From assembly GCA_963776345.1 (NCBI GenBank), contig CAVZMH010000012.1:124502-188501 (forward strand): a stretch of DNA of 64,000 nucleotides, read 5' to 3'. This DNA is from an uncultured delta proteobacterium. Lineage in GTDB: Bacteria > Myxococcota > Myxococcia > Myxococcales > Myxococcaceae. This document shows positions 1-64,000 of this stretch, in pieces. Numbering within the stretch: the first letter of the stretch is position 1; every line of letters starts with the position of its first letter. The position numbers and the translations under genes were made by a program. The notes beneath the pieces were generated by a model. That model was not told the DNA's origin. It made no database searches and saw only the letters and a list, made by a program, of their open reading frames with translations.

Positions 1-196
1 TCTCGCGCCGGATTCCCAGGGTGTCCCCCTGCTGGGTCCGGAGGGTGCAGTAAGCCAGCGAGCGGATCGCCGGGGTGGCCGTTCCCGGGCTCGACGGCGT
101 CGGGGCACCCGCGCCCCGGGCGGCGGACTGGAAGATCACCGAGCCTGCGGCGGCGACCCCGGCGTTCCTCAGCAAGGTCCTGCGGGTGGTTTCCAT
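1..196 (-). CDS. 5' part of a protein with a Tat-like signal peptide (runs off the window start)
   Basis: My translation from ATG at 196: METTRRTLLRNAGVAAAGSVIFQSAARGAG...; GAGGAGGAG RBS upstream; RR motif followed by a hydrophobic segment. Confidence 0.6.
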   Translation of the reverse strand, partial: METTRRTLLRNAGVAAAGSVIFQSAARGAGAPTPSSPGTATPAIRSLAYCTLRTQQGDTLGIRRE

Positions 197-334
197 GGGA
201 ACTCCTCCTCGGAGGGAGCGAGAGGTTGCATGCGGCGGGGCGGGAGCGCCAGCGCCACGAGCCTGACGCCGCGCGCCAGTTGCCACTGGACGGCGGTGGC
301 CGGCCCCCGTCCAACCGTGTAGAGAGCACGCACC

Positions 335-1526
335 GTGGACGCCAACTTCCTCACCGACCTGGCCGCCCGGACGCGCGAGCTCCGTGAGCAGGGCCTCTAC
401 AAGAACGAGCGGATCCTCGTCTCTCCCCAGAACGCGTCCATCCGCGTGGAGGGGGGTGCGCGAGGTCCTCAACTTCTGCGCCAACAACTACCTCGGCCTC
501 GCCGACCACCCGAAGGTGGTGGAGACGGCCCGCAGCGCGCTGGAGAAGTACGGCTTCGGCATGGCCTCGGTGCGCTTCATCTGCGGCACCCAGGACCTCC
601 ACAAGACCCTCGAGGCACGGCTGAGCCGCTTCCTCGGGACCGAGGACACCATCCTCTACTCGAGCTGCTTCGACGCCAACGGCGGCCTGTTCGAGACGCT
701 GCTCGGCGAGGAGGACGCGGTCATCACCGACGCGCTGAACCACGCCTCGATCATCGACGGCATCCGGCTGTGCAAGGCGAAGCGGCTCCGGTACGCGAAC
801 AACGACATGGGCGAGCTGGAGGCCCGGCTCAAGGAGGCCTCGAGCGCCCGGTACCGGCTCATCGCCACCGACGGCGTGTTCTCGATGGACGGGATCATCG
901 CCAATCTCCGGGCCATCTGCGACCTGGCGGACCGGCATCGCGCGCTGGTGATGGTGGACGACTCGCACGCGGTCGGCTTCGTGGGCGCCCGGGGCCGCGG
1001 GACGCCCGAGTTCTGCGAGGTGATGGGCCGGGTGGACATCATCACCGGCACGCTGGGTAAGGCGCTGGGTGGCGCGTCGGGCGGCTACACCGCGGCGCGG
1101 AAAGAAGTCGTCGCCTGGCTGCGGCAGCGGAGCCGGCCGTACCTGTTCTCCAACTCGCTGATGCCGGCCATCTGCGCGGCCACGCTCACCGTCCTCGACC
1201 TGCTCGAGGGCGGCGACGAGCTGAGGAAGCAGCTCCGGGCCAACGCCGAACACTTCCGGAGCGAGATGACCAGGCTGGGCTTCAAGCTGGCCGGCGCGAA
1301 CCACCCCATCATCCCGGTGATGCTCGGGGACGCGAAGCTCGCCTCGACCTTCGCCGAGCAGATGCTGGCCGAGGGCGTGTACGTCGTCGGCTTCAGCTAC
1401 CCGGTGGTGCCGCAGGGCCAGGCGCGGATCCGGACGCAGATGTCCGCGGCGCACACCCGCGAGCAGCTCGACCGGGCGATCGCCGCCTTCGCCAAGGTGG
1501 GCCGCGCCCTGGGGGTGATCCGGTGA
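335..1526 (+). CDS. kbl: Glycine C-acetyltransferase (2-amino-3-ketobutyrate CoA ligase); one frameshift near 450-458
   Basis: [14 protein letters not shown] in the frame from 335 joins [47 protein letters not shown] in the frame ending at 1526; break at a G6 run. Confidence 0.92.
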
Positions 1527-5855: not shown

Positions 5856-6227
5856 TCAGGCGTTCCGAGGCGAGTGAAGGGCGACAGAGTTGCCCTCCGT
5901 GTCCCGGAAGACGGCGATGAAGCCCGGGTCGCCGATGTCGGTCCGGGGCATCAGCAGGGTGCCGCCGGCGGCCCGGAGCCGCTCGACGCAGGCGTCCAGC
6001 TTCCCGGCCGCGTCCAGGTAGATCAGCGTCCCTTCCGAGGAGGGCTTCCGGTGGCCGTCCTGGATGAGGGCGCCGCTGGCGTCGCTCTGCCCCGCCGGGA
6101 AGATGGCGTGGGGGACGCCTCCGAAGATCTCGCGCTTGAGTCGGACGCCGAGGACGGTCTCGTAGAACCGGACCGCCCGGTCCAGGTCCAGGGTGGGGAT
6201 CTCGAACCAGGTGAGTGCGTTGGCCAT
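5856..6227 (-). CDS. VOC/glyoxalase family protein
   Basis: NALTWFEIPTLDLDRAVRFYETVLG...GFIAVFRDTEGNSVALHS. Confidence 0.9.
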   Translation of the reverse strand: MANALTWFEIPTLDLDRAVRFYETVLGVRLKREIFGGVPHAIFPAGQSDASGALIQDGHRKPSSEGTLIYLDAAGKLDACVERLRAAGGTLLMPRTDIGDPGFIAVFRDTEGNSVALHSPRNA

Positions 6228-6323
6228 GACGTGCTCCGTTGCGGTGTGGCGGCCCCGCGGAAATCGCGAGTGCGGCCGGCAACATGGCTTGCCCCGTTGT
6301 CAGGTGTATGTCAGCTTTGAACG

Positions 6324-6956
6324 ATGCGCCGGCAGGCACGGCTGTTCGCACTGGCAGAGCACCTCCGGGCCCGGCGGACGGGGGTGACGGCCGCCGAGCT
6401 GGCCGAGCGCTTCGGAGTGACGCTCCGGACCATCTACCGGGACCTCGACGCGCTGCGCGAGGCGGAGCTCCCCCTGTCGGCCGAGCGAGGCCGAGGAGGC
6501 GGGTACGCGCTGGACCGTGCCTACTCCCTGCCGCCGGTGAACTTCACCGCCCGGGAGGCAGCGCTGCTCTCGGCCCTCGGCGACTGGGCGATCCGGGCCC
6601 GGCTGGTGCCGTTCACCCGGACGCTGCAGGGGAGCATCGACAAGGTACGCGGGGCGCTGGCCGCATCGGCCCAGCGGGAGCTGCTGGAGCTGATGCGCGA
6701 GCTGACCTTCGTGGGAATCCCGGCGCACCCAGCAGCCCCCGGTGTCCGCGAGGCGGTCGAGGACGCGTGGTTCGAGCGCCGGGTGACGCGGGTGCGGTAC
6801 CGGTCGTCGGAGGGAACGGTGAGCGAGCGGCGCGTCCGGGTGCGCGGGCTGACGATGGAGCGCTCGCTGACGATGGTCCACTGCGACGACCTGGATCGCG
6901 GCGAGCGCCGGACGCTGCGGCTCGACCGGGTGGAGCGGGCGACGCTCGAGGGCTGA
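6324..6956 (+). CDS. YafY-family HTH-WYL transcriptional regulator
   Basis: TAAELAERFGVTLRTIYRDLDAL..GRGGGYAL; C-terminal RTLRLDRV; divergent from the VOC gene. Confidence 0.88.
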   Translation: MRRQARLFALAEHLRARRTGVTAAELAERFGVTLRTIYRDLDALREAELPLSAERGRGGGYALDRAYSLPPVNFTAREAALLSALGDWAIRARLVPFTRTLQGSIDKVRGALAASAQRELLELMRELTFVGIPAHPAAPGVREAVEDAWFERRVTRVRYRSSEGTVSERRVRVRGLTMERSLTMVHCDDLDRGERRTLRLDRVERATLEG

Positions 6957-6957
6957 G

Positions 6958-7857
6958 TCAGCGCGCCGGAGGGTTGAAGGGCGACGGCTCGCCGCGGGCC
7001 CAGCGGAGCGGAATCGCGCCGTCGATCTGGATGACCCGGTTCACCGCGAACCGGAGCACGCGTTCGGCGCCGGGGATGGCAGCCGCGGACTCGGCGGACC
7101 AGTCGATCGAGAGCTTCCCCGAGAGCTGCAGTGTGGAGCCGGTCTTGCCGTCGAGGAACAGCAGACCCGCGGCCGGGTGAACGGCGGCATTTCCCAGCGA
7201 GTTGAAGAGGGCGTTCCCCGAGTAGTCACCCCAGATGAGCTCGCGTGGCCCGGTGACGCGAACGAAGCCTGGAGCACCGCCGCGGTGTGAGGCGTCGGCA
7301 CCGGCCTCGGGGTGAAGCGTGCCGAGGAAGAACGTCTCGGCACGTTGGATCCAGCGGCACTGGTGGTCATCGAGCTGGTCACTCGTGCGGGGGCTGCCCT
7401 GGAGCACCGCCCCGTCAGGGACCGGGCGGTACGCCTGGATGTACTTGGGACAGTTGCCGTACGCCTCGCGGACGTCGACGAGGAGCTCTGGTCCGACGGT
7501 CACGACCGTTCCGTTGACCCGGAACCGACGGCGGGCGGCGAAATCGATAGTGACGAGCCCGACGGACGCTCCCGGCCGCAGTGCCTCGGCGATGGGATCA
7601 TCGCTGCGGGGGGCCGCGGAGATACGCAGCCGGTGACCGTCCTCGGAGGGCTCGAGGAACCCGGGCGCACCCGCGAGAACGCTCACCCAGACATGGTCGT
7701 CGGCCGTTGCGGCGGTGAGGACCACGAAGCGACGCTCGGCGAGAAAGGCACTCGGCCCAGGGGAAATCGCGCGCCGGAGAATCTGACCCGTGCGCTGCGC
7801 GTCACTGAGGACTCCGGCGCGCTCCTGAACGAGCAGTTCGCCTTCGTGGAAGCTCAC
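6958..7857 (-). CDS. Pyridoxamine 5'-phosphate oxidase-like FMN-binding protein (two domains)
   Basis: FHEGELLVQERAGV, RRRFRVNG, EAYGNCPKYIQ, DASHRGGAPGFV, DYSGNALFNSLGN. Confidence 0.85.
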   Translation of the reverse strand: MSFHEGELLVQERAGVLSDAQRTGQILRRAISPGPSAFLAERRFVVLTAATADDHVWVSVLAGAPGFLEPSEDGHRLRISAAPRSDDPIAEALRPGASVGLVTIDFAARRRFRVNGTVVTVGPELLVDVREAYGNCPKYIQAYRPVPDGAVLQGSPRTSDQLDDHQCRWIQRAETFFLGTLHPEAGADASHRGGAPGFVRVTGPRELIWGDYSGNALFNSLGNAAVHPAAGLLFLDGKTGSTLQLSGKLSIDWSAESAAAIPGAERVLRFAVNRVIQIDGAIPLRWARGEPSPFNPPAR

Positions 7858-7914
7858 CGCCGGCTGCTACTCGTCCCAGCGGAGCCGTTCAAGACAATCG
7901 CCGTGATCGTCCGT

Positions 7915-9689
7915 TCAAGGGCACGACTGGATTGGTGTCGTGGGATTCCCGGTGTTCCGGACGTCGTGCTGGTACTTGGGCCACGGCGCGGTCTGCGTCG
8001 AGACCTGGGCTGTCGACGACCAACGAAAAAAGGCTCCCAGCCGTGCTGCCTAGATAGAGCACTCCCGCGGAGTTCTTGATGGCAACGCCGGCTTCCCGCG
8101 AGCAGTCGAGGGTCATCGAAGCGGAGATGTTCTCAGACAGCGGAGTCGACCATGCACTCACGCCACCCGACCGTGCCTCGAGCGCTCCACCATTCGTAGC
8201 GAGATAGAGAATTCCGCCCGCACCGAGAACGGGGACGCTCCGCGATGGCCCTCCGATTGCGGTCCCCGATCCGGAGAACGAGACCGAATCCAATGCCCAC
8301 ACTCTTGGTGAGGTGAGGTCAGTGTCCGAGAAGAAGACTTGGGCCACGCTCACTACTGGTCCCGAGGGATCAGTCTTGATTCCTCCGTCTGGCCCAAGCC
8401 GGCTGACCGCTCCCGTGCTTTTCCCGATTCTGCACAAACCGTCCGGTCGGACGGTCGCGAACAGATCAGTTCCAGAGATTGCGATGGGACCCAGCTCACC
8501 CTCACCAACGAGCGCCGTGCCGCTAGGCCATCCTGGATTCTTCACCCAGTTCCGGGAAGTCTCATCGAAGACAAACGAGCGAGTCGTGTTGTCCGCCGCT
8601 CCGATAAAGAGCCCCGACGCATCCCCGGCGATTGTCTCCATCTGGGTCTGCTGAACGGTGACAAACGCTTCGATACACGCTGAGTCAGTTGGCGTCTGAG
8701 CCTTAGGCCGGAGCGTGTACAGCCGGTTTGCTCCTGAGATGCCCACCGCAGACTCCAGCGGTCCGTTGTCAGAGATCGTCTGAACAAGAGCGAGACCGGC
8801 GAGGAAAGGGGCGCCCGTACTTGAGGCGCAGACTCCGGCATCTCCACCGTCGCTGAGCCTCAGTGCATACATCTTGGAGCCCACGCCAGCCGCTGTCGCC
8901 GCATATACCGTTGACGAGTCGGCTGAACCTGGCCCCACCGTGGGACTAGCTCGTATCGGCCCGAGCTCTACCGGCGCCCACTTCTCCACTCCCGCCGGCG
9001 TCAACGCGTACAGACTCCCGCTTCCCCCATCGCTCGTTCCGAACACGATCGTCCCATCGTCCGCGATCGCCGGCGTCGTGTAGATCGGCGCGCCCGCGGA
9101 GTACCTCCACTTCCACCGCGTCACGTTCACTCCGGCGTCGGCCTTCCCCAGGTTGTTGCTCAGGTCGGATCCCGGACGCCTCGATCGCAACCACGCCGCG
9201 GAAGGCCTCGAACGGCAAGACGGCCAGAGCGAGACCGTCGCCTCTCTGCAGAACGGATTCGACGCGTTCGGGTTGCCCGGCGCGCACGCCACCGAGCTGC
9301 AGCTCGAGGGTCGTCCCGGGATTGCCCGACACGCCGAACACGACCAGCTGCACCGACCCGGCGTCCACGTCGCGATCCGCCGAGGTCACGGTCACCACCA
9401 CGCTCTCGTCCCGCCGAAACGCGTCCACCCCACCGTCGGGTGAGCCCGGATCCAGCTCGGTCAGCTTCCCCGTGTTCTGCCGCGGGGGCGGCGGCGCGAT
9501 GACGATCGAGAACACCGGCGGCGTCTTGTCGTTCGGGTTGCTCCCCGAGACGCACGTCTTCGTCCCCGGGTCACACGTCCCGCCACTCACACAGTCCGCG
9601 TCCGAGCTGCACGACCGGGTCGGATCGAAGCAGGCCCCGACCAGCACCACCGCGGCGATCAGCCCCAGAGTCGAGATCGCAGTCCGCAT
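7915..9689 (-). CDS. Lipoprotein with an N-terminal Cys-rich motif and a C-terminal PQQ-like beta-propeller; about 4 frameshifts
   Basis: Lipobox LVGAC, CSSDADCVSGGTCDPGTKTC; WKWRY..TTPAIADDGTIVFG repeats; ends APWPKYQHDVRNTGN..SCP* after a frame change near 7990; other shifts at about 9170-9295. Confidence 0.7.
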
Positions 9690-9698
9690 CGTCGCTCC

Positions 9699-10655
9699 TC
9701 AGAACCGTCCCGCCATCACCAGCGAGCCCCCGCCCGGAGCCGGCCGGAGATCCACCCGCGCGCCCTCGGCCTTCCCGGAATCGAGCACCCACAAGGTCAC
9801 GCCGGTCGCGACCAGCGCCGCTCCGGCCACCAAGGCAATCGTCACCGGCGCGGTCTTTCCCCGCAAGGACTGCTGCGCTGCCTGGGCCTCCGGAGTCGGC
9901 GGGCGCTGACCGTACGGATCCAGCGTGGCCCGGTACGCGTCCTGGTCGCTCTTCGCCCCGAGGAAAAGCGCGGTCCCGACCGCCAGCGCCACCGCCCCCG
10001 CGCCCACGCAGGCGTATGCCGCGATGCGCTGCCCCGAGGCTCCCTGCGCAGCAACCGTGGCCACGGCCGCAGGGGGAACCTCGGCGCGCGGCTCGGGCGC
10101 GCTGACCACCGCGGGGACCTCGCCCGGCACCGCGGCCGGAGCCGCCACCAGGGGCTGCAGGTCCAGCGTCTCCAGATGGAGCCCCTCGGTCAGCACCTTC
10201 TCGATTCCTGGACGGATCATCTCAGGGCGGAGACGGCCCTTCGGGCGGGTGACCTCCAGATTGGACACGCTCCGCTCCAGGAGCCCGTCGGACCGGACGA
10301 GCTTCCCCACGAACACCATCCGGGGCCGGAATGGGTACACGCTGATGTAGAGCGCACGCTGCCCACCGCAGGCACGGGCGAGCTCGGCCAGGCACCGCTC
10401 GTCCCCGCCGCAGCTGCCGCCGGGCCGAGCGGCCACGAACTGGCGGGCGCACGCTTGCCCGACGAGGCGGACGTCACGCCGGGAGAGCTCGGCATCGAGC
10501 TGTGGACCGAGCCGCGCCGCGTCGTCCTCGCTCCCGCCGACCACCACCAGCGGGTGCGGAACCAGCCCTGGCGTGGACGTCCCCTGCGGAGCGGCGAAGG
10601 CGGAGACGGTCACCAGAACCGACCCGCACAGCGCTGCCCGCCGCAAGCCGTTCAT
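9699..10655 (-). CDS. Secreted myxobacterial-type protein with a C-terminal hydrophobic hairpin and terminal Phe
   Basis: Signal peptide; CGGDERCLAELARAC; two Gly/Ala-rich hydrophobic segments; ends SLVMAGRF. Confidence 0.7.
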   Translation of the reverse strand: MNGLRRAALCGSVLVTVSAFAAPQGTSTPGLVPHPLVVVGGSEDDAARLGPQLDAELSRRDVRLVGQACARQFVAARPGGSCGGDERCLAELARACGGQRALYISVYPFRPRMVFVGKLVRSDGLLERSVSNLEVTRPKGRLRPEMIRPGIEKVLTEGLHLETLDLQPLVAAPAAVPGEVPAVVSAPEPRAEVPPAAVATVAAQGASGQRIAAYACVGAGAVALAVGTALFLGAKSDQDAYRATLDPYGQRPPTPEAQAAQQSLRGKTAPVTIALVAGAALVATGVTLWVLDSGKAEGARVDLRPAPGGGSLVMAGRF

Positions 10656-10708
10656 GCCCCCCTCCTTCGGATCCGCCGAGAAAGGTCATAGCATCGCCCG
10701 TCCTGGGC

Positions 10709-10724
10709 CGGCACCTCCCTTGCT
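10709..10724 (+). promoter_or_regulatory. Candidate sigma-54 (-24/-12) promoter
   Basis: CGGCACCTCCCTTGCT versus consensus TGGCACGNNNNTTGCW, with exact GG-N10-GC spacing, 48 bp upstream of the RBS-led GTG at 10772. Confidence 0.5.
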
Positions 10725-10771
10725 AGGTGCATGCCAGGGTGCGCGCGCGTCACGTCGCATGGGGGAGGGTC

Positions 10772-12226
10772 GTGGTCTCGATTCGCCGGTGGGTGCTCGG
10801 TGGGGTGCTCGCGTCCTCGGCTGCGGTCGCCGCTCCCCGGATGGCGCTGGTCGCGCTCGGCGACTGCCGTGACCCGGACCTCCTCCGGTACGAGCGGGAG
10901 TTCGAGCAGCGGCTCTCGGACCGGGTTGGCCCACAGCTCCTGCCCGAGGAGCAGTTCCAGGCCCGCGTCGGACCACCGCCCACCCACACCCTCGACGAGG
11001 TGCGCCGGCAGGTCTCCACCGCCGAGAACCTCTTCTACAACGACCGGGTGGCGGACTCGCTGGCGCTGCTCGACCAGACCCGGGCCGAGCTCGAGCGACT
11101 ACCGCCCGGACCCGAGCGCTGGAGGACCTTCGCCGACGCCCAGCTGATCCGCGGCATGGCGCTCAGCAGCCAGCGGCGCCGGGACGCGTCCGACGACGCC
11201 TTCCGCTCGGTGCTCCGCGTGGACCCGCGTCACGTGATGAGCCCGGACGCCTTCTCGCCGACGTTCCGCCAGCGCTTCGACAAGCTGCGGGCCGAGCTTG
11301 CCCGCGCCCACAAGCTCCACCTCTCGGTGCAGTCGCAGCCAGCGGGCGCCACCGTGTACGTGGACGGGCTCGCGCTCGGGCACACGCCCGCGACCCTCGA
11401 CCTCGTCCCCGGCAACTACCAGATCTTCGTCGGCCGCCCGGACGCGTTCTCCTTCCCCCACCTGGTCCAGCTCCGGGAGGACACCAGCCTCCGGGTCGAC
11501 CTGGCGTTCGAGCAGACCCTCCCGCCCTCGCGCGCCGCGTGCCTCCAGCAGCCGCGCGACGGGAAGGAGACGCCGCTGGGGAACGCGTTGAAGCTGGCGC
11601 TCCTGCTCGAGGTCGACCAGCTGGTGGTGCTCCGGCTCGACAGGCCCGCCGCCGGACCGAGCTGGCTCTCCGCGGCGGTCCTCAATGCGCAGACCGCGCA
11701 GCGTACCCGCGAGGGCGGCATCCAGCTCGGCGGGACGCGCTCCGGCGGCGACGACCTCGGCGAGCTGGCGCGCTTCGTCGTCACCGGCGAGACGGGAGAG
11801 CGGGTGGTGGTGGTGAACCCGTCCACCCCCCAGGCCTCGGTGCTCGCCCTCCCGCCGCCCGCGGCGGTCACCCAGCTCCAGTCCAGTCCGGCGAGGACCT
11901 GGCGCACGCCCACCGGCATCGCGCTCACCGCGACCGGGGCCGTCGCGCTCGGGCTCGGAGTGGTGTTCCAGCTAAAGGCGAACGACTCGGCGTCCAAGTT
12001 CAACCAGGCCTACTCCGGCGGAACCGCGCCCCTCCCCGGCCAGGTCGGGACGGTCGACGGGTACCGCAACGATGCCCACACCCAGCAGACGCTGGCCTAC
12101 GTCGGGTACGGCGTGGGGGCGGTCGCGCTCGGCACGGGCCTGTGGCTGTGGCTGACCGACGGAAAGGCCGGGAGCACCGCGGTGATCGCCGGGCCAAGCT
12201 CGATTGCCGTCGCCGGGCAGTTCTGA
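10772..12226 (+). CDS. PEGA-domain protein with a TPR-like helical region and C-terminal hydrophobic hairpin
   Basis: LSVQSQPAGATVYVDGLALGHTPATLDLVPGNYQIFV (PEGA); GGAGG RBS; ends SIAVAGQF. Confidence 0.8.
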   Translation: MVSIRRWVLGGVLASSAAVAAPRMALVALGDCRDPDLLRYEREFEQRLSDRVGPQLLPEEQFQARVGPPPTHTLDEVRRQVSTAENLFYNDRVADSLALLDQTRAELERLPPGPERWRTFADAQLIRGMALSSQRRRDASDDAFRSVLRVDPRHVMSPDAFSPTFRQRFDKLRAELARAHKLHLSVQSQPAGATVYVDGLALGHTPATLDLVPGNYQIFVGRPDAFSFPHLVQLREDTSLRVDLAFEQTLPPSRAACLQQPRDGKETPLGNALKLALLLEVDQLVVLRLDRPAAGPSWLSAAVLNAQTAQRTREGGIQLGGTRSGGDDLGELARFVVTGETGERVVVVNPSTPQASVLALPPPAAVTQLQSSPARTWRTPTGIALTATGAVALGLGVVFQLKANDSASKFNQAYSGGTAPLPGQVGTVDGYRNDAHTQQTLAYVGYGVGAVALGTGLWLWLTDGKAGSTAVIAGPSSIAVAGQF

Positions 12227-12230
12227 GGGC

Positions 12231-13922
12231 TCAGGGGACGTAGACCCGGACGTCGGTCGCGGTGCTGTAAACCAGCCCTGGCTTGCGTCCGAACATCGCC
12301 GGATGCCAGGCGACCGCCGAGGCGCTGTCCGGCGCGGTGGCGAGCACCGTCCACGGCGAGTCGCAGTCGGTGGACAGGTCCCGCTCGAGCAGCTCGAGGA
12401 GATTGCTCGCGTTCCGCCGGGCCCCGAGCACCCGCGCGCTCTCGTGACGGGTGGCGACCGTGAGGCCTCCCGGCGCGGGGCGATCCACCGGCGCAGGGCA
12501 GACGCCCGCATCGGGGGCCGACTCACAGCTGCGGCACAACTCGACGCGCGTTCCGGTCCGGGTATCGAACGCGACGACGCTCCGGTCCGCACGCGGAAGG
12601 GCGAGCGAGAACCTCGGATCGTCGGCGAGGTCGGTGCGGACGGGCGGCTCGACGTGGAGCTCCTCGGTGGGACTCGCGCCGCAGCTGGCCCGGAACCAGG
12701 CGCGGAGCAGCCGGTGCTGGGCGTCGGTCGCGACCACCTCCCAGAATTGCTCGGAGCGAATGGCGAGCCGGTCGGGAACGAAGCCGATGGCCAGAGAGTA
12801 CGGGCCGCGGGAGTACCCGCCGGTGGAGCTCACCACGCCCACCGAGCCGACCGCGGCGGCGGGCTCCGCGCACGAGGGGCCCGTCGGCACGACGGCGGCG
12901 GCGGAGGGCGTCGAGAACGCGGACCCGATCCGCACGTCCACCCGGTCCGTCGCGTCGTGCTGGAGGACCGAGGCGACCCGGAGTGGATCTCCGCCGTCGG
13001 CCTGGAACGCGGTGCTGGCCCTCAGCGCGGTGAGCGGCGGGGCCGGGACGTCGAGCAACGTCAGCTGCTCGAACTGGCCGTCGGCGGGGTTGAACCAGCC
13101 CCAGATCACCTTGCTCGAGGTCTCGATGGCCAGCGTGACGACCCCGTCCTCGTCGGACGCGGCATCGAACGAGACCACGGACCCGAGCCCACCGATGGTC
13201 CCGCTCTGCGCCGGGCGCGCGGCGGTCCAGAACCGGGCCGATGCGGGCAGGTTCGGGTTCTCGAACGCGTCGGCCACCACGCCCGCCTCGACGCCGACCC
13301 GGTAGCCGGTGTCGTGGCTGAGCCCGGTGAAGACGAACCGCTGTCGCGTCGAGTCGTAGGCGCCGGTGGCTCCGCCGGGCTGAAGCACGGCCGGGACCCC
13401 CGCGCCGGTCACCGCCTCCCCGAAGTCGACCGTCAGCTGCACGTCGGCGCCCCGCTCGCCGTCTGCCGGCGAGAACCTGGGCCGCGGAAGCACGTCGTCC
13501 ACCCGGAACGGAACCGAGACTCGGCGCTCGCGAGCCTGGCTGTCGCGGGCGAGCAGCACGAGCTGCACGTCCACCCCGTCCAGCGGCGGCAAGGGGATGG
13601 TCAGGGCGAAGAGCCCGCCGTCCACCGGGACGCCTCCCGCGGTGCCCGCGTCCAGCAGCTGGTAGCTCATCCCGATCAGGGTCGCGTCGGACCAGGTGGC
13701 GACTGTCCCCCGCACCTCGAGGGTCGGGTCCTTCACCGCGGCGTCCGGCTTCGGCGTGAGCACGGTGATCTGGGGGTTCAGATCGAGCACGCAGAGGTGC
13801 GTCTGCTCATCGCAGCTCTGGCCCTCGGGACAGGCCGAGCTTGAGCAGTCCGCCGCAGGGGTGAGCGAGGTGCACGCGGTGCCCGCGAGCAGCAGCAGTC
13901 CTGCCGCGATGTGTCTCGACAT
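12231..13922 (-). CDS. Lipoprotein with an N-terminal Cys-rich motif and Ig-like domains
   Basis: MSRHIAAGLLLLAGTAC lipobox; CSSSACPEGQSCDEQTHLC; FSPADGE..LTVDFGEAV..LSHDTGYRVGVEAGVVADAFEN (Big_5-like). Confidence 0.7.
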   Translation of the reverse strand: MSRHIAAGLLLLAGTACTSLTPAADCSSSACPEGQSCDEQTHLCVLDLNPQITVLTPKPDAAVKDPTLEVRGTVATWSDATLIGMSYQLLDAGTAGGVPVDGGLFALTIPLPPLDGVDVQLVLLARDSQARERRVSVPFRVDDVLPRPRFSPADGERGADVQLTVDFGEAVTGAGVPAVLQPGGATGAYDSTRQRFVFTGLSHDTGYRVGVEAGVVADAFENPNLPASARFWTAARPAQSGTIGGLGSVVSFDAASDEDGVVTLAIETSSKVIWGWFNPADGQFEQLTLLDVPAPPLTALRASTAFQADGGDPLRVASVLQHDATDRVDVRIGSAFSTPSAAAVVPTGPSCAEPAAAVGSVGVVSSTGGYSRGPYSLAIGFVPDRLAIRSEQFWEVVATDAQHRLLRAWFRASCGASPTEELHVEPPVRTDLADDPRFSLALPRADRSVVAFDTRTGTRVELCRSCESAPDAGVCPAPVDRPAPGGLTVATRHESARVLGARRNASNLLELLERDLSTDCDSPWTVLATAPDSASAVAWHPAMFGRKPGLVYSTATDVRVYVP

Positions 13923-14075
13923 TCGTCCCCCCGTCCCTCGGCCCGGACGGACCCGATGCGAGCCCCGGGCGTTCCGGGTCCGGTGCGGGGGAGATTCTGC
14001 ACGCCACATTCCAGCTTTCGGAGCGTTTTCGAGCAGGACTACGCTTGGCCGGAGGGATGCAGAGGGGGGCCGGGC

Positions 14076-15434
14076 ATGAAGCTGGGGGCATCGTGGCTGC
14101 CGATCGCGCTCCTCGCCGCGTGCGGGACGGTCGACTCCGGACCGGGGCAGGACCTGAGCGTCCAGCTCGCGGCGCTGCCGGACGCGGTGGTCGGCCGCGA
14201 CTACCGCGAACGGAGCGTGGTGCTGCAGGCGCAGGGCGGGAGCGGTTCCCTCTCGTGGAGCCTTCCCCAGCGACCTCCCTCCCTGGCCTGGCTGAGCATC
14301 GGCGAGAGCACCGGGCTCCTCATGGGAACGCCGCTGGACGTGGTCTCCCCGGCGGCGGACTTCGTGGTGCAGGTCACGAACGGCACGGCGCGCGCGCAGC
14401 AGCCGTTCAAGCTGTCCGTGGGGTGCTCGGAGGGTGCGAGCAGCCCCTGCGGCGTGCCCGACGCGACGCTGGCGATGTGCGTCGCCGGGACGCGCGTGTG
14501 CCTGAACGGGAAGCTCGGGGGGTGCACGGCCGATCCCGGCCGACCGCCGTACGAGGCCGACGCCACGCACTGCGGCGCGAGCTGTGACGAGACCTGCTCT
14601 CGCACGTCGACGAACCGGTGCGTCGGAACGTGCTCCTGTGGCAGCGCCGGCGGACCCTGTTCGGGCGCGACCCCGGCCTGCTGCCCGGGGAGCGATGGGA
14701 GGCCGGAGAGCTTCTCTTGCGTCTCGCTGCAGACGGCCCAGCACTGCGGAGCGTGCCAGACGGCGTGCCAGCCGAAGGCGAACACCGACGTCGGTTGCGC
14801 GAGCAGCACCTGCAGCTTCCCCTGCAAGGCGCCCTGGCTGAACTGCAACGGCGGGACGGTGACGGCCGACGGCGCGGACGCGGACGGTTGCGAGACCCGC
14901 GTCGACGGCGACGTGAACAACTGTGGCGCGTGTGGACGGAGGTGTCCGGCGAGCCTGACCGCAGCGGCCCACGCGGCCCCCGGAGCCTCACCCTCCTGCG
15001 CCGAGGGAAGCTGCCGTTACCGGTGCGACCTGCCCAGGTACCACGACTGCACCGGCGGAACGTGCCGGGACGACACCACGGACCAGGACCCGGATGGGTG
15101 CGAGACGGACTTCTCCAGCGCGAGCAGCTGCGGTGGGAGCGGCAACGTCTGCCCGGCCATCGACAACGCGGACCCGATCTGCATGCTGAACGGAAGCACC
15201 GGGCGTTACGAGTGCGGCCTGAGGTGCAAGGCCGGCTTCGACCCCGACCCGTGCGGCTCGCCACCGGTGTGCAGGCCGCTGAACGACCCCGAGAACTGCG
15301 GAGTGTGCGGCCGGGCCTGCCCGACGATCGACACGCAGGAGGAGCAGCAGCACTGCTCGAGCGCGGGGCAGTGCTGCATGCAACTCTGCGATCCGGCCAA
15401 CAGGCCCCCCTGCGGACACGAGTTCTGCGGCTAG
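14076..15434 (+). CDS. Cys-rich lipoprotein with a putative Ig domain and repeated (H/N)CGxC motifs
   Basis: LLAAC lipobox; LPDAVVGRDY..LAWLSIGESTGLLMGTP; HCGASC, HCGACQTAC, NNCGACGRRC, ENCGVCGRAC; DGCET repeats. Confidence 0.75.
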   Translation: MKLGASWLPIALLAACGTVDSGPGQDLSVQLAALPDAVVGRDYRERSVVLQAQGGSGSLSWSLPQRPPSLAWLSIGESTGLLMGTPLDVVSPAADFVVQVTNGTARAQQPFKLSVGCSEGASSPCGVPDATLAMCVAGTRVCLNGKLGGCTADPGRPPYEADATHCGASCDETCSRTSTNRCVGTCSCGSAGGPCSGATPACCPGSDGRPESFSCVSLQTAQHCGACQTACQPKANTDVGCASSTCSFPCKAPWLNCNGGTVTADGADADGCETRVDGDVNNCGACGRRCPASLTAAAHAAPGASPSCAEGSCRYRCDLPRYHDCTGGTCRDDTTDQDPDGCETDFSSASSCGGSGNVCPAIDNADPICMLNGSTGRYECGLRCKAGFDPDPCGSPPVCRPLNDPENCGVCGRACPTIDTQEEQQHCSSAGQCCMQLCDPANRPPCGHEFCG

Positions 15435-15502
15435 AGCCCCGGGATTCGGCGCGTCGGGCGAGGGGTGGAGATGGCAGGAGGATCGCCCTACGGTGCGTGG
15501 GC

Positions 15503-16664
15503 ATGACCGACCCCGGGGACGTCCAGCCCTTCCGCGCCAGCGTCTCGGAGGTGGTGCTGGCGGACCTGCGCGAGCGCCTCGCGGGGACGCGCTGGCCGGA
15601 ACCGGTGACCGGCGTCGGGTGGAGCGAAGGCGTCGACCAGGCCTGGCTCCGGCGCGTGGTGGCGCACTGGGAGAGCCGGTTCGACTGGCGGATCCAGGAG
15701 GCCCGGCTGAACGCCTTCCCCCAGTTCCTGGTGCGGGTGGGCGACACCCGGATCCACTGCATCCACCTGCGCGGTCGCGGGCCGAGGCCGATGCCGCTGG
15801 TCATCACCCACGGCTGGCCCGGGTCGGTGTTCGAGATGCTGCGGCTCGTCCCGCTGCTGGCGAATCCGGCCGCGCACGGAGGTTCGCCCCAGGACGCCTT
15901 CGACGTGGTGGTGCCGTCGATTCCCGGGTACGGCTTCTCGGACCGGCCGACGTCCCCCGGGATGTCGAACTCGGCGGTGGCCGACCTCTGGGTCGTGCTG
16001 ATGGAACGGCTGGGGTACCCGCGGTTCGCGGCGCAGGGCGGCGACTGGGGGGCGGGCATCTCGACCTGGGTGGCGCGAAAAGCGCGCGAGCGGCTCGTCG
16101 GCCTGCACCTCAACTACATCCCCGGCTCGTTCCGGCCCTGGGTCGAGGACGAGGCGGGGCTGAGCGCGGAGGAGCGCGGCTTCCTCGCGGACAAGGCGCA
16201 CTGGTCCGAGGAAGAAGGCGCGTACGGGCACCTGCAGTCGACACGGCCCGGGACGCTGGGCGTCGGCGCTGACGGACTCGCCGGCCGGGCTCGCGGCGTG
16301 GATCCTGGAGAAAGTCCGGGCGTGGAGCGACTGCGACGGGGACGTCGAGTCGCGATTCTCGCTGGACGAGCTACTGGCGAACGTGACCCTGTACTGGGTG
16401 ACGAACACGGCGGCGTCGTCCATCCGGTTGTACCGCGAGTCGAAGCTCACGCCGCTCCAGCTTGGGCCCGGCGAGCGGATCCGCGTGCCGATGGGGTTCG
16501 CCCACTTCCCCGCCGAGGCGCCGTCTCCTCCGCGGCGCTGGGTCGAGCGCGGCTATGACGTGCGGCGGTGGACCGAGATGCCCCGCGGTGGCCACTTTGC
16601 GGCCTGGGAGGAGCCGGAGCTGCTGGCCCAGGACCTCCGGGAGTTCTTCCGCCCCCTCAGGTGA
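15503..16664 (+). CDS. Epoxide hydrolase family protein; frameshift near 16265
   Basis: LADLRERLAGTRWPE, HGWPGS, PSIPGYGFS, QGGDWG; continues LTDSPAGLAAWILEK...RGGHFAAWEEP in the next frame. Confidence 0.9.
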
Positions 16665-56147: not shown

Positions 56148-57487
<1,340 letters not shown>

Positions 57488-57499
57488 GCGCCCGGCGGA

Positions 57500-60400
57500 T
57501 CAGCGCCGGCGAGTGACCACGGCCCGACGCCGCGAGGCCGTGAGCGAGACTCCGACCAGCACAGGACGGCGAACGTCCCGCTCGCCGTGCCCGAGGCGCT
57601 GCACCCGAGCCCGCTGGAGGACTTGCCGGAGGTCGTCAGCGCAGAGGAGCGCGCGGCGACGGCGCGGGCGCTCGGGTCGCCGAGCAGGACGAAGGTGGCG
57701 TGGAGGTCCGAGTCGGAGATGCCCGCGAGCGCGGCCTGGGTGGCCTCGCCGAGCGTCATGCCGTCGACGAGGAGGGCCTTCACCAGCGCGCGGTCGACTG
57801 CTGGGTGCTCGGACGGATAGGTCATCGCCGTGCTGCCCCATGCTCCCCACGCGCCCCCGCTCTGGGCGAGGAGCGTTGCCACGGCCAGGCTCTGCCGGCG
57901 CGGGTCCTGGAAGAACCCGGTCATGCAGGTCATGTCGACCCAGAGGGCAGTCCCGCCTCCGGCGAGGGCATCCGTGTCATCGACAGTGTGGAGATTGCCA
58001 GCCCAGAAGGTCTCGGACGCGTGACCCGCGTAGTTGACCAGCGCGGGCCCGGCACGGGCGGCGTCAAGGAACTGCTGATGGAGGACCTCATCCGGCTGTG
58101 AGCCACGAATGAGCACGGTGGCGTTCGCCTCCGGCAGCGCGGCGCGGAGGTCCGCCGTCATCTCGGGGAAGTCGCTGGTCCCGAGCTGGTCGGCGACGAG
58201 GAGCACCGACGACCGGGTGTTCGCCTCGCGGCGGCCGAGGATCTTCGCGACTACCGCCTCGGTCTCGGCGAGCGTGCGCACCGGAAGCCGTCCGATGGAC
58301 AGGGCGTCCGCGCCGGGGACGGCGAGGAACCAGCTGTCCGAGGCGGCCTCGAGCTGCTCGGTCTGGACGATGCCGCTCGGCGTCAGATCACCGCCGAGCC
58401 CGAGGTAATTTCGCGGATCGTAGCTCGCCGAACCCAGGAGGAGCACCCAGCGGGGCGAAGTCGACCAGGCCTTCAGCGACTGGGTGAGGAAAGCGCGGAT
58501 GGCGTCGGCGCTCTTCTCGCCGGAGGCGAACTCGTCCTGGACGTCCTCGATGTCCACCAGCGCGACGGTCAGGCCTTCACTGGTTCGGCGCTCCACCAGC
58601 GGTTGCACGCCGGGGAAGAGCGCCGAGGGTCCGATGATCACCAGGTCCGCGCCATCGAAAGTGTGCCAGCTGCTCGGGCGATTGGCGACGACCGAGTCCG
58701 GAGCGACGACGTCGCCGGGGAGGTACGCGAACAGCCGCCGGACGCCGCTGCCCGATGCCGCGACCGCCGCCGCGCCCGAGGCGTCCCAGGTGGCGAGCCG
58801 GACCGGAGCGTCCGGGTCGGTGATGTCCAGCACCTGGGTCAGCGCCGCTTCGAAGCCGTCGAGCCGGGCGGAGCCGCCGCCGGCCAGGGTGAACTCGAGC
58901 GGGCCCGAGCCCCGCGCCGCCATCCGGGGGTACACGAGGCGGACGTACTGCTCGAGCGAGACGTCGGACCCGGCCGGGGCCACGAGCCCGACCACGTTGT
59001 CGCCGGGCAGCAGCGCGCCGGGCGGGAGGTCGATGCGCGCCGTGCCCAGCACCTGGCCGTCGAAGGCGAGGGTGCCGACCGGCAGCCCGTTCACCGTGAG
59101 ATTCACCGCGTGCGGAGTCTGGGTCACCCCCTGGAGCGCGACCTCGAGCCGCGCACCCGCGGCGGAGACGTCGAGGCCTTCGAGCGAAAGCGTGCGCTGG
59201 CGAGCCTGCGAGTACACCGCCGGCCCGAAGAACTTCTCGGCATCCCCGTTCTGGACGGCACCGAACCAGACCAGCCGCTCGCGAATCTCCGCGGCGGCGA
59301 GGAAGGTGGCGACCCCCGCGCCGGTCGAGACCGCGGCCTGACTCGCCAGCGCGCGGCCGACACCCGGTCCCGCCCTCAACCAGTAGACCGCTGACCCGGA
59401 GTATCGGGTGTCCATGCCCTCGCCGTAGAACTCGACGGCATCGCCGGCGCTGAGCGTCGCCCCGTCGGCGGCGAGCACCGAACGGGGCACCTCGCGGCCT
59501 TGCCGGAACAGCCGGATCGCGGAGATCGGCGTGCCCACCGGCAGGCCCACGGCGAACAGGGACTCCGCGGAGACATGGACGACACCCGGGCGAGACACCA
59601 CCAGCTTCACGGTGTTCTCCGCCGCGAGCTGCCACTGCACGCCCTGGGCGACCGGCGCGCTCCGTGGCCGGAGCGGCTCGGCAGGCGAGACCTGCAGGGC
59701 GGGCTGCTCGCGGAGCACGCTCGCGGGCTGCCCGATGACCGCGGAGGCGAAGACGGGCGCCTTTCCGCCGGCCGGGGTGGCGCGGAGCCACTCGGTGGTC
59801 CCGTCGAGGCGCAGGGCCTCGACGAAGTACTGCGCCCCGAACGGCGGCCGAGCATCCAGCCACCCCAGCTCGGACCCGGCGAGGAGCGTGGCCCGGCTGC
59901 TGAGAACGGGACCGGCGACGAGATCAGGGGTCAGGAGCTCCCGGCGGCCGGCCGACTCACGCCAGACCCGAAAGCCCACCACGTCGGAGCCGGGCTCGAG
60001 CTTCCAGGAAACGGCCGCCCCAGAGCCGGAGATGCGCACCTCCGGGGCGGCCACGCCCGTGCGGGTCGGATTCGAGGCGTGGATGGGGACGGCAGCCAGC
60101 GACCAGAGGTTGGCGGTGTTGGGCGTGAGGTTCCAGGACATGGTCGTCGTGCCTGGACTGGTCACGTTGAAGGTGTCCGCCGCGCCGAACTCGGTGCTGT
60201 TCAGGGTGGCCCAGCGGACGATCGCCGACGACTGGACCGGCGTCGCGGAGGTGGCCGCGGAGTTCGACGACAGCACGGAGAACACCTTGTCACCCTGGAC
60301 GGTGGTGACGTTCACCGTGGCGAGGCCCACGGGGTTGTCCACCCCGACTGCGGCCGTCCCCACCGGGGTCGTCTGGTTCACCCCGCTGTAGGAGACCGAA

Positions 60401-61545
60401 CCCGCCACCGCGAAGCAGCTCCCCGCGTTCCAGGTGACGGTGATGGTGTTCGTGCCCCGGGCTGGCGCAACCAGACCGTAGAGGAACACCCGGGTGGTCC
60501 CGGCGTTGTCGCTCGTCAGGAGGGCCATGCCCTGCGCGCCGTAGCTCACCGCGCTCGGACCGGTGGTCGCGCCGGCGAACCCTGTCGAGATGCCGACGAC
60601 CAGGTAGCGATCGGTGGCGTTCGCGCCGACGGTGTGCTGCCAGGTCAAGCTGGCCGCGCAGGTCCCGGTCGTGGAGGCGAGGGCGTCCACCTGGACCGCC
60701 TGCACGTACACCTCGAGCTGGAGCGAGTTGCCCGACGTTTTGAGCGCGAACCCGTTGCCACTGGCCGTGGTCCCGAGCGAGACCCCGGTGGTGTCCAGCG
60801 TCCCTCCCGTCGAGGTGACGATGGTGTAGGTCCCGGGGGTGATCGTCACGCCGTTGTTCTTCGTGACGTTGATCACCCCGGACACCGTCGCGTTTCCGCT
60901 CACCGTGAGCGCGGTCACGGTGGTGGCTGCGGAGAAGTTCACGGTGAGACCACCGCCCGAGGGGACGGACAGCGAGCTCGCGCTCAGGTTGGCTCCCAGG
61001 GCCACGATGCCGGTCGAGCTGACGGTCATCGAACCGGCGTTCCCGCCTCCGCTCAGGGTGAGCGTGCCGACACCGGCGGTGGTCAAGGTGCTGGCAGTGA
61101 CCGCGCCGTTGATGGTGACACCGAACCCGGAATGGTTCAGGGTGACGGTGCCGTTCAGCGTCGTCGGGCAGGCGAGGATCTGGTTCGTCGCCGCCGCGGT
61201 GTGCGTGAGCCCGCTTGCGCTGATGGTCATCGTGGTAGCGGTACAGCTCACCGTGGTGGTCGCGGTCCCGCCGAAGGTCAGACCGAGCACGCTCGCGCTG
61301 GCCCCGCTGACGGTGATGGTTCCGGCGGTGCCGCCCGAGATCGTCGCGGTGTCGGTCGCATTGGGGACCGCGCGCGGCCTGGGACTCCAGTTGCTTGCGG
61401 TGTTCCATTCGCCCGCGTCGCGCCTGAAGGTCCGAGCCACCGCGTGGGCGCTCGGAGAGGCCAGCAGCGCAGCGAGCAAGACCAGCGGAACCCAGCGACC
61501 CAGCCGCGCCGACCCCTTGACTCTGTCTCTGCTCTCAGCGCTCAT
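57500..61545 (-). CDS. Large secreted C25 (gingipain-family) cysteine peptidase with N-terminal beta-rich passenger-like domains and a MYXO-CTERM-like anchor; frameshift near 57565
   Basis: Signal peptide; C25 motifs VDIEDVQDEF, WVLLLGSASYDPRNYLG, ASDSWF, IGRLPVRT, VNYAGH (His), MTCMTGFF (Cys), FVLLGDP; tail GLGCSAS..TFAVL/VLVGVSLTASRRR. Confidence 0.85.
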
Positions 61546-61750
61546 CGGGAGGCTCCCGCTGCGGATCATTGCATGCTTTCCGCCACCGCGAAGAAGGGCG
61601 CGTGCACTCTCGGAGCTCCGCGCACGGGGCCGGGTCCCAACACCGCGCATGGGTCTGCCGCCACCTGACGCAGCGTTGCGAGCATGGGCGAAAAGTGCAG
61701 CTGTGAGCGCCGGGAGCAGAAGGTGCGCGCCCAGCGGGTCGGCCGGTCCG

Positions 61751-62761
61751 CTAGGGGGTGTGAGGGGCGTGCGGATCGGCTGGCACCCGCGTCCGGAGTC
61801 GACGGAGCGCATGACGCGATCCGCGCCGGAGCAGCTCCAGGAGCTGCAGCGGAAGTCTCGGCACACCACGAAATGGCGCGTCGAGGTGGAGGGTCGAGGA
61901 CAGCGGGTCCGGCCAGCGGGCGCGCAAGGCGCTGGGCAGCCGGGACCACGAGATGCCCTCGAGCCGCTCCGGCGATGGGCGATAGCCGCGCGCCCAGGCC
62001 CGCCTGACCGCGCGTTCGAACCAAACCGGCACGGTCGACGCAGGCGGGGCCACGCTGGGTCGCGCCCCCAGCCACTCGCTGGCGAGCTGGACGCAGGAGA
62101 GCACCCCCTCGCTGAGATGCTCGCTGCCCGCGAGGCATGCCGACCAGGAGAAATCCGCCGGGAGCGCCTCGACCAGCACCGCGACGTCGCAGAGCCAGAG
62201 CGGCCGCCAGCAGCCGTGGTGCAACTGATGCAGGCAGACCAGCCGCAGATGGTCGGCCGGGCCGAGGACCCGGATGTGCCCTCCGGGCACCGGCACCTCC
62301 TCGGACGCCTCGAGCAAGGCCTCGACGCTGCGGTCCGGCAGGTACCGGGCCAGGTCTGCCTGCAGATCGACCTCGCTCTCCCCCTGGAGGCGGGGGAGAA
62401 CCGAGCGCGCGTGCGTGAGGTCCTCGGGTCGAACCAACAAGTCCACGTCCCCCACCGGGCGTAGGCCAGGGCGGCCGTAGAGCCGCGCGATCGCCCAGCC
62501 CTTGAACGTCGCGGCACGAATCCCGTGCGCGTCGAACGCTGAGAAGAGCGAGACGAGCCACCGCTCCCGGCGCAGGAGCTCGAGGCTCTGGAACCTCTCG
62601 GTCTCGGACGGGGCGACCGTCGTGCGGCGGAGAATGAGCGCCTCCGCCCCGGTCACCTCCGCCGAAGCGACCAGCGCCGGTGGGAGGAGCAGAGGGGCGA
62701 CGGGTCCAGCCCGGAAGGTCCCGCGAAGCGCCTCCGCGAGAAGCGGAGCGCTCGCCGTCAC
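61751..62761 (-). CDS. Nucleotidyltransferase family protein (NTP_transf_5-like)
   Basis: TFKGWAIARLY..LRPVGDVDLLV, HLRLVCLH, WLCDVA; GTG start overlaps the upstream stop (GTGA). Confidence 0.85.
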   Translation of the reverse strand: MTASAPLLAEALRGTFRAGPVAPLLLPPALVASAEVTGAEALILRRTTVAPSETERFQSLELLRRERWLVSLFSAFDAHGIRAATFKGWAIARLYGRPGLRPVGDVDLLVRPEDLTHARSVLPRLQGESEVDLQADLARYLPDRSVEALLEASEEVPVPGGHIRVLGPADHLRLVCLHQLHHGCWRPLWLCDVAVLVEALPADFSWSACLAGSEHLSEGVLSCVQLASEWLGARPSVAPPASTVPVWFERAVRRAWARGYRPSPERLEGISWSRLPSALRARWPDPLSSTLHLDAPFRGVPRLPLQLLELLRRGSRHALRRLRTRVPADPHAPHTP

Positions 62762-63216
62762 TGACAGATGCCGGGCCCACCGCCAGGCTGACAGGTCAAG
62801 GGGCTGCAGCAATTGGGGGTGGTGGTGCACGCCTGCCCGAGCGTGGCGCAGGACGTTGCCGCCCGCGCCCGGGGGGCAGTGATGGCCATGATGACCGGGA
62901 TCGCCGCGAGCCCGACCTGCTTCATGAGCGTGCGACGGCTCAGCGCCGCACGGGCAGTCCCACTGCCGTCATGGATCAAAGCCGCCATCTCCAGCTCGCC
63001 GAGGGTCCAGCTGACCACGGCCTCACCGGCCGCACCCTCGCCGTAGGCCTCCGCGATCTGCCGCGCGGTCCGCGTGCCGTCACAGAGGGCCCAGACCCGC
63101 GCCGCGCGTGGGTCCAGGCAGTGCGCGCGATGGGTCCGCTCGTCGTAGACCAGGGTGTCCGGTCCGGTCGGCTGAACGAGCAGCTGGTCGGTTCGGGCCT
63201 TGGGTCGGTTCGCCAT
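62758..63216 (-). CDS. PqqD/RRE-domain protein fused to a twin-arginine-like leader and a 6-Cys peptide
   Basis: TLVYDERTHRAHCLDPRAARVWALCDGTRTARQIA..TLGELEMAALI (RRE), SRRTLMKQVGLAAIPVIMAITAPRARA, ATSCATLGQACTTTPNCCSPLTCQPGGGPGICQ. Confidence 0.82.
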   Translation of the reverse strand: MANRPKARTDQLLVQPTGPDTLVYDERTHRAHCLDPRAARVWALCDGTRTARQIAEAYGEGAAGEAVVSWTLGELEMAALIHDGSGTARAALSRRTLMKQVGLAAIPVIMAITAPRARAATSCATLGQACTTTPNCCSPLTCQPGGGPGICQ

Positions 63217-63452
63217 CGGGAGCGGTCGGAGTGCAGCTTCGGTGCCCGTATCCTCGCAGACAGCCTGACAGTCCGTCGAGAAACCGAATGGGCGATACGG
63301 GCCGGGCCGCGTCCTGCCGGGGTCGAACTTGGCCGTGGGGTTGTGGGCCCCGACGACGCCGCACTCCGACATGGCTGGAACGCGCAGCCGGTGTATGCGT
63401 CCCGCGCCGAGTCGGCGAGACTGGTCAGGTCAGGGGTGACGCACGGCTCCGC

Positions 63453-64000
63453 TCAGCGCGCGTGGCGCCGGCGGAGCGAGAGGGCCAACACCGCGAGCAC
63501 CAGCGGCGCCAGCGCTGCGAGGGGACTGCCGGGGGTACTGCACCCGCCGGCCCCGGCCTTCGGCGTGTTGACCACCGTGGCCGCCGGGCTCCGAGCCGCC
63601 ACCGCGCGCGCGCTCGGGTCGCCGAGCAGGTGGAACGTGGCGCGAACGTCCGGGTCGCTCACCGCCTGCTTCGCCTTGAGCGTGGCCTCGCCGAGCGTGA
63701 GCCCCTCGTTGAGCACCCCCGAGAGGATCGTCCTGCTCAGGAGTGCGTGCTCTGTCGGGATCGTGAACGCCGACGACGCCCACATGCCCCAGGCGCCCCC
63801 GCGGGAGCGCGCAGCAACGCCGACGCCAAGGCTCTCCGCCGATGTCGACGAAGTACCCGTTCAGGCAGGTGGCGGCGACGACCAGCCGCGGTTCGCCGTG
63901 CCGGCGAGCGCATCGCTGTCCTTGGTGGTCAGGATCCGCCCGTCCACAAGTCCTCGGCGCCGTGCCCTGGTAGTCGACCGCGACCGGTCCGCTCCGCAGC
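63453..64000 (-). CDS. C-terminal part of a second C25 peptidase with a MYXO-CTERM-like tail (runs off the window; several indels)
   Basis: Piecewise translation VDYQGHG, AATCLNGYFVD, GAWGMWASS, LTLGEAT, TFHLLGDPSARAVAARS, GGCSTPGSPLAALAPLVLAVLALSLRRR. Confidence 0.8.

Follow-up and report, generated by a model that had tools for sequence, protein, structure and literature searches.

Why should one short gene join a PqqD/RRE domain, a twin-arginine signal and a cysteine-rich peptide in a single chain? The question is raised by a 152-aa precursor encoded on the minus strand (62758..63216) of the window, the 64,000-nucleotide stretch analysed here, in a soil myxobacterium whose genome carries three precursor copies. 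The reading we favour is a one-chain precursor for modify-then-export peptides, a proposal that, taken as a whole chain of steps, we regard as evenly poised. In the cytoplasm, as modelled, the second half of the protein's Tat signal would lie against the N-terminal RRE as an extra strand, and Ser122, held by the docked leader at a constant distance, would be offered to an HprK-like kinase whose gene is on another contig. By analogy with LPP and pseudomycoidin, a coupled nucleotidyltransferase would then perhaps extend the phosphate with a sugar or a nucleotide. The twin-arginine signal would then engage Tat while the RRE stays on the cytoplasmic side, signal peptidase would cut after ARA to release a 33-aa core, and the core would close three disulfides outside the cytoplasm to reach a knottin fold. 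Export, cleavage, modification and disulfide closure are what we infer for this chain, and the evidence for each is given below.

Layout and predicted fold of the precursor

The minus-strand frame from 63216 to 62758 holds 152 codons without a stop. It begins with the PqqD/RRE domain (residues 1-84, 62965..63216), delimited by an AlphaFold2 model, fold matches and PF05402. The twin-arginine motif SRRTLMK (residues 93-99, 62920..62940), recognised by its conservation, is followed by an uncharged stretch (residues 100-115) with the h-region (residues 101-115, 62872..62916, from model and conservation) and a c-region from R116 to A120 (62857..62871), in which register counts place a signal-peptidase-type site with ARA at residues 117-119. 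The 33-aa core (A120-Q152, 62761..62859) has the spacing C-x6-C-x5-CC-x4-C-x8-C, eight Ser/Thr and a knottin fold predicted from a model of the core, and its Ser122 (62851..62853), seven residues after P115, is the predicted kinase target on the basis of conservation and the LPP analogy. All of these features lie on the minus strand, and every motif named in a first-pass annotation of the DNA (the RRE, SRRTLMK, the hydrophobic stretch, ARA and the six-Cys core of 33 residues) is found in the translation. Position 63216 is the likely start, since close relatives begin at the Met of MANRP and the contigs of two sequencing runs carry single-base indels at 63292-63347; on the same grounds a longer frame from 63372 (204 aa) was rejected. 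A plus-strand frame over the locus was also rejected, and one RNA run that was examined gave no contig across the gene body.

The N-terminal domain almost certainly has the RRE fold. The PqqD match of the 152-aa protein reaches 19.9 bits, under the Pfam cut-off of 23.4, and PF05402 is found at E<=0.05 in 137/137 aligned relatives. The AlphaFold2 model computed from this 137-sequence alignment (mean pLDDT 86.6) consists of three strands followed by three helices, and its best structural matches among 48,161 chains are RREs, among them TfuB1 (6jx3_B; Z 9.3, rmsd 2.3, 80 residues aligned) and TbiB1 (5v1u; Z 8.3). The domain of about 85 residues that had been proposed from the DNA alone is thus matched by both the model and the family profile. 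In the model a further strand is placed at residues 109-113, inside the h-region (leader pLDDT 63-75). Structural alignments of the model to RREs stop near residue 83-89, except for 4wd9_A (NisB with the NisA leader), where residues 1..116 of the model align with 136..1020 (Z 7.3, rmsd 3.9, 96 aligned). The chain 4wd9_A has 1006 aa, while NisB has 996 aa with a three-residue offset in 6m7y, a difference of 13 residues, so that the extra residues are most likely the NisA leader and the model's own h-region is placed there. Judging from alignment end points rather than coordinates, the protein's own leader probably docks on its RRE as an added strand. Self-binding of this kind had been named in the first-pass annotation as something for structure prediction to look for, and the model supports it at moderate confidence.

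The RRE-Tat-core fusion family is very large and apparently undescribed. A single-sequence search found 57 family proteins among 634 candidates and a genome scan 77 loci. In a profile search, 718 clusters (50% identity) reached E<=1e-30 and 5561 reached E<=1e-10, discrete RREs being among the weaker ones. Fused members occur in Myxococcaceae (Myxococcota), Acidobacteriota, Okeania (cyanobacteria), Solirubrobacterales (Actinomycetota), Chloroflexota and Gemmatimonadota. Within the host's own class, full-length or nearly full-length matches (E<1e-29) were found in 11/201 genomes, including all five other genomes of the genus that were searched, and the other matches among the 101 positive genomes of the class are weak and mostly RRE-only. 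An Atlas search returned only PqqD-annotated clusters, one of them with UPF0506 in 19% of its members. Published RRE surveys cover discrete RREs and enzyme fusions and, in the parts of these sources that are accessible, mention no fusion to a substrate (PMC7470986; PMC12710340; daptide preprint 10.1101/2023.03.08.531785); in one of them, again as far as its accessible part goes, 21% of PF05402 proteins exceed the length of an RRE alone and carry no other annotation (PMC12710340). No description of the fusion was found in our literature search, which covered open-access text; the RRE-Finder supplements may list members. A precursor in which the RRE is joined to its substrate and a Tat signal acts as the leader would be of a new design. 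As to gene integrity, a transposase-like ORF splits the precursor gene at one locus (L116:10144-12105), and at another (L067), 14 kb contain several copies of the fusion gene that are broken or frameshifted.

Neighbouring genes and the conserved serine

Three genes on the minus strand surround the precursor. Directly downstream lies a nucleotidyltransferase of the NTP_transf_5 family with its GDxD motif present (61751..62761; PF14907, 98.6 bits); its likely GTG start overlaps the precursor stop (GTGA), and both PF14907 genes of the genome directly follow such precursors. Next comes a gene for a large secreted C25 (gingipain/PorU-like) protein with a signal peptide (57454..61569; PF01364, 188.6 bits), and on the upstream side a second C25 gene is represented by its 3' end with a MYXO-CTERM motif (63453..64000; TIGR03382, 21.3 bits, cut-off 15.85), cut by the contig end. 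The only HprK-like kinase of the genome, with Walker A and SDE motifs intact, is encoded on another contig, C2 (24270-25286), about 8 kb from a different precursor copy; no kinase gene stands beside the 152-aa precursor at this locus.

Several irregularities were observed around these cassettes. The tail of the downstream C25 gene (57454-57600) is MYXO-CTERM-like and seemingly frameshifted, with the GC motif in frame and the hydrophobic stretch and RRR in another frame. In the upstream fragment (63453-64000) the frame breaks near the contig end, where the contigs of the two runs show length differences of single bases, so that assembly errors are likely there. A stretch of contig C2 (5674-6392) that covers the end of a sigma-54 regulator gene and a C25 tail is 87% identical to 57046-57771 of the window; the regulator is truncated in the C2 copy, which suggests duplication of the cassette. 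C2 also holds a tandem array (6129-16347) in the order precursor, nucleotidyltransferase, C25, precursor, C25, and its two six-Cys cores are near-identical, with C-x9-C as the first loop.

All three precursor copies stand within one gene of C25, all C25 matches of the genome fall in these cassettes, and C25 proximity recurs in relatives and in Blastocatellia loci. The core might accordingly be a partner of the C25 protein, as inhibitor, substrate or sortase-like surface cargo, and some knottins are indeed protease inhibitors, such as EETI-II among the matches of the core model. Such a partnership concerns only the role of the product and is compatible with modify-then-export; we hold it to be unlikely, as no more than 12 of 56 fused loci have C25, which occurs at 4 of 21 discrete-RRE loci too, and the core contains no Arg or Lys, the P1 residues of gingipains.

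Kinase and nucleotidyltransferase genes are more frequent companions. Across the 56 fused loci, a kinase is present at 35 (31 within 1.5 kb), a nucleotidyltransferase at 30 and both at 23, with the caveat that one of the 56 (L062) is probably a false member and that a true fusion (L033) is counted among the 21 discrete loci, neither having been moved. At those 21 loci a kinase occurs in 14 and a nucleotidyltransferase in 10; since both genes are thus also found near discrete RREs, their link is not specific to the fusion, and the fusion seems to derive from a wider RRE-kinase-transferase module. Multi-copy precursors were seen at three loci (L028, L039 and L030, the last with four), where a protein methyltransferase-like gene replaces kinase and transferase; L028 and L039 also carry a DUF1223 thioredoxin-like gene.

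The proposed target of these enzymes is held at a fixed position. Residue 122 is Ser or Thr in 127/137 relatives (Thr in 32/137), and a Ser/Thr lies exactly seven residues after P115 in 124/136. The same distance is kept at 54/62 loci selected by their RRE, including 16 of the 20 with fewer than four Cys, whether the cargo is a knottin, a Cys-free sequence or an 800-aa surface protein. The precursor core begins with ATS, and 17/62 relatives have Gln at the middle position. According to the accessible part of its description, the LPP core begins with AQS and is acted on by an RRE, an HprK kinase, an NTP transferase and a signal-peptidase-type enzyme; the kinase phosphorylates Ser3, LppK rejects Thr, and LppN was inactive when tested (PMC13381572). 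For pseudomycoidin, the part of the report available describes PsmN as required to add hexose to phospho-Ser (PMC6993621). By analogy, the balance tips slightly toward phosphorylation of Ser122 by the HprK-like kinase, whereas action of the nucleotidyltransferase on the core's phosphate, adding a sugar or a nucleotide, is a tentative suggestion. The kinase, the nucleotidyltransferase and the conserved Ser together probably explain the presence of the RRE.

The genes could instead serve other substrates, the RRE being a signal-binding cap or a relic and the product a plain, unmodified Tat-exported knottin. The distance of the kinase gene from this copy, its occurrence with the transferase beside discrete RREs, and 11 of the 56 fused loci in which kinase, nucleotidyltransferase and C25 are all absent (3-16 kb in view) fit such a product; the Ser/Thr kept at P115+7 over unrelated cargos, the GTGA overlap that couples the nucleotidyltransferase to the precursor, and the purifying selection on the RRE (pN/pS 0.28) make it rather improbable.

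The twin-arginine leader, the core and other cargos

The leader is the most conserved part of the precursor, above the RRE. In the alignment of 137 relatives, R94 is present in 137/137, R95 in 136/137 and K/R99 in 121/137, with no RR-to-K exchange, while P107, P115 and A120 are kept in 134/137, 136/137 and 121/137, respectively. Entropy is 1.58 bits in the leader, 1.86 in the RRE and 2.98 at non-Cys core positions, and pN/pS among six close orthologues is 0.14, 0.28 and 0.48 in the same order; no positive selection on the core was seen from these six sequences, whose synonymous sites are near saturation. The ARA register (117-119) fits 53/137 relatives, a register one residue later fits 101/137, and 133/137 fit one or the other. 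The first-pass annotation had expected a kept leader next to a hypervariable core and had staked its reading on conservation of RR and AxA; in the alignment the core varies as foreseen, RR is nearly invariant, and a peptidase-type site is found in all but four relatives.

A TatFind-like rule, applied without its N-terminal position limit, is passed by the 152-aa protein and by 131/150 representatives, as compared with 18/1346 background windows (internal 90-aa windows in long ORFs from the precursor's own genome). Since the alignment and the 150 representatives had been picked by a profile containing leader and core, such counts are partly circular, and the leader count was therefore repeated on loci found with RRE-only patterns: RR plus an uncharged stretch follows 63/71 strong RRE matches, and the full rule is passed in 46/71. 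The +3 residue is non-canonical. The motif S/T-R-R-x-hydrophobic-hydrophobic-K is present, with Leu at +3, where the Tat consensus has Phe; Phe occupies this position in only 3/149 family members. At E<=0.05 the Tat-signal models TIGR01409 and PF10518 match 24/137 and 5/137 relatives, respectively, and neither matches the 152-aa protein itself. Furthermore, the RR pair is located at residues 94-95 (family median about 101), away from the N-terminal position typical of Tat signals. The genome encodes TatC, and an internal Tat signal is known from a membrane protein, the Streptomyces Rieske protein, according to the accessible part of that study (PMC13186574). From these sequence features, we consider Tat export and cleavage of the core likely.

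Folded alone, the core gives a model with pLDDT 83.9 whose matches are mostly knottins from spiders, cone snails, sponges and plants, with draxin, Dickkopf and IGFBP also among them; scores stay low, with a best Z of 4.3 (rmsd 2.0, 33 residues aligned) and Foldseek E>=0.24, and the spacing of the Cys may by itself be enough for AlphaFold to produce a knottin. On this model a knottin fold is very probable, and the knottin framework read from the DNA, C-C-CC-C-C, is borne out both by the spacing and by the closest matches of the model. Knotted 1-4, 2-5 and 3-6 disulfides would follow from such a fold. The accompanying comparison to toxins holds for the fold and fails for activity: the core has no charged and no aromatic residue, such as typical channel toxins possess, which makes venom-like activity doubtful, and Pfam toxin matches are below cut-off. 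Rather than blocking channels like a venom peptide, the product most likely serves as a signal or binder or works at the cell surface.

The knottin is only one of several cargo types. Among 146 cargos selected by profile, Cys counts are even in 141, odd in three and zero in two, and the exact six-Cys framework is present in 56. The 62 cargos parsed from RRE-selected loci comprise 21 with the exact framework, 23 with another even number of Cys, 15 without Cys, one short cargo with an odd number and two long cargos with one Cys. Other cargos include IPT/CoaZ repeats, Gly-rich LTK sequences, collagen repeats, Dictyostelium repeats and a pretoxin Hint domain, ranging from short peptides to an 800-aa surface protein, and their extracellular-type domains argue for export. 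What had been called a self-chaperoning knottin precursor stands as regards the RRE, the modelled docking of the leader, the RR pair and cleavage site, the variable core and its fold; it was too narrow in its cargo, and it left out the kinase, the nucleotidyltransferase and the conserved Ser. Three members (P0116, P0188 and P0204) have a Hint domain after the Cys core (PT-HINT, 81.5 bits in P0188 and weaker in the others), which could free the C-terminus of the core through self-cleavage. In two Okeania loci (L010:9687-10598 and L015:8825-9733) a MauE-thioredoxin fusion, a candidate disulfide catalyst, is encoded between precursor and nucleotidyltransferase, and three other loci (L017, L023 and L032) have short, Cys-poor cargos rich in Pro, Thr and Gly beside kinase and glycosyltransferase genes.

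Two readings dispense with release of the core. The signal could remain uncleaved as an anchor, so that the membrane-held protein keeps its RRE inside, exposes its Cys domain to the outside and functions as an adaptor or sensor. The Streptomyces Rieske protein offers a precedent of an internal Tat signal in a membrane protein, in what is accessible of that work (PMC13186574), and the AxA register varies; given a peptidase-type site in 133/137 relatives and an h-region that is short (15 aa) and carries two conserved prolines, we judge an anchor distinctly improbable. A cytoplasmic RiPP precursor, in which the RR-hydrophobic-Pro segment is a leader for the RRE or enzymes only and the Cys are metal-bound or cross-linked, would suit the non-canonical +3 residue, the h-region modelled as an RRE-bound strand and the weak likeness that some members show to TIGR04117, the Cxxx-repeat radical SAM target family (E 0.0036), and is very unlikely in view of the extracellular cargo domains, the even Cys counts, the knottin-like core model and the absence of radical SAM and YcaO genes among the 142 adjacent same-strand ORFs scanned.

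Extended over all cargos, modify-then-export can be carried one step further. RRE, Tat leader and Ser might form a portable tag, in which the RRE would hide the h-region until the Ser next to the cleavage site is marked by a kinase, so that only modified cargo would be exported, whatever its nature, whether a peptide of 15 aa, a knottin or a surface protein as large as 800 aa. We regard this as a speculative and somewhat doubtful extension; if true, a very large pool of phospho(glyco)-knottins in bacteria would stem from it.

Relation to known systems

The nearest parallel is LPP of Bacillota. As far as the accessible part of its report shows, both systems combine an RRE with an HprK-like kinase and an NTP transferase, and have signal-peptidase-type cleavage (predicted here), a conserved N-terminal region, a variable core and a Ser at the core start, whereas in LPP the RRE is discrete, the leader is of the YxxP type (YxxPxV...FETxxS), and the system has an MsbA-like exporter and an SpI peptidase of its own (PMC13381572). 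By contrast, the present RRE is fused to the substrate, the leader is of the twin-arginine type, the core is Cys-rich, and the adjacent ORFs lack a dedicated peptidase or transporter, no SpI peptidase or MsbA-like exporter being found among the 142 adjacent same-strand ORFs. The precursor family is not an LPP member. The modification proposed here resembles the tailoring of the lasso peptides paeninodin and pseudomycoidin (PadeK, PsmK and PsmN), in which, in the available part of that study, a kinase phosphorylates a Ser and an NTP transferase is needed for attaching hexose to the phosphate (PMC6993621). Their target Ser is C-terminal, whereas the one proposed here lies near the N-terminus of the core, and no cyclase or B2 peptidase is encoded in the same 142 ORFs.

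The HPr-rel-A system (TIGR04352/TIGR04353) has a related kinase (E about 1e-15) and PqqD protein (E 0.0026), but the matches mostly remain under the curated cut-offs (57.8 against 200 for the kinase, 18.7 against 35 for this PqqD), one large-cargo member passing at 38; moreover, its PqqD model describes a discrete 74-aa chaperone, while the RRE is fused here. TorD and NapD are signal-peptide-binding chaperones that cover the signal until maturation. Compared with these, the covering domain would be the soluble RRE of the same chain, with a small peptide as cargo. The Streptomyces Rieske protein likewise has an internal Tat signal, so that a signal away from the N-terminus can work (PMC13186574, from its accessible part); what precedes the signal in the present precursor is a soluble RRE. 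If the proposal is correct, the precursor would show that in nature a soluble domain can precede a Tat signal that is cleaved. With the inhibitor cystine knots of spider toxins, conotoxins and squash inhibitors, the core shares the C-C-CC-C-C framework and the predicted fold; it differs from cystine-knot toxins in lacking charged and aromatic residues and in having an RRE-Tat unit instead of a Sec prepro-peptide. Bacterial knottins are listed in KNOTTIN, none with a solved structure in the accessible part of its 2017 description (PMC5753296), and the family would, if correctly read, be a large source of them. The PF14907 nucleotidyltransferases and HprK-like kinases would also gain a defined substrate. 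Finally, at four loci (L060, L061, L068 and L070) a second RRE, joined to a radical-SAM-like domain (CxxxCxxC), comes after a discrete RRE; this is a related RRE clade that belongs to a different system.
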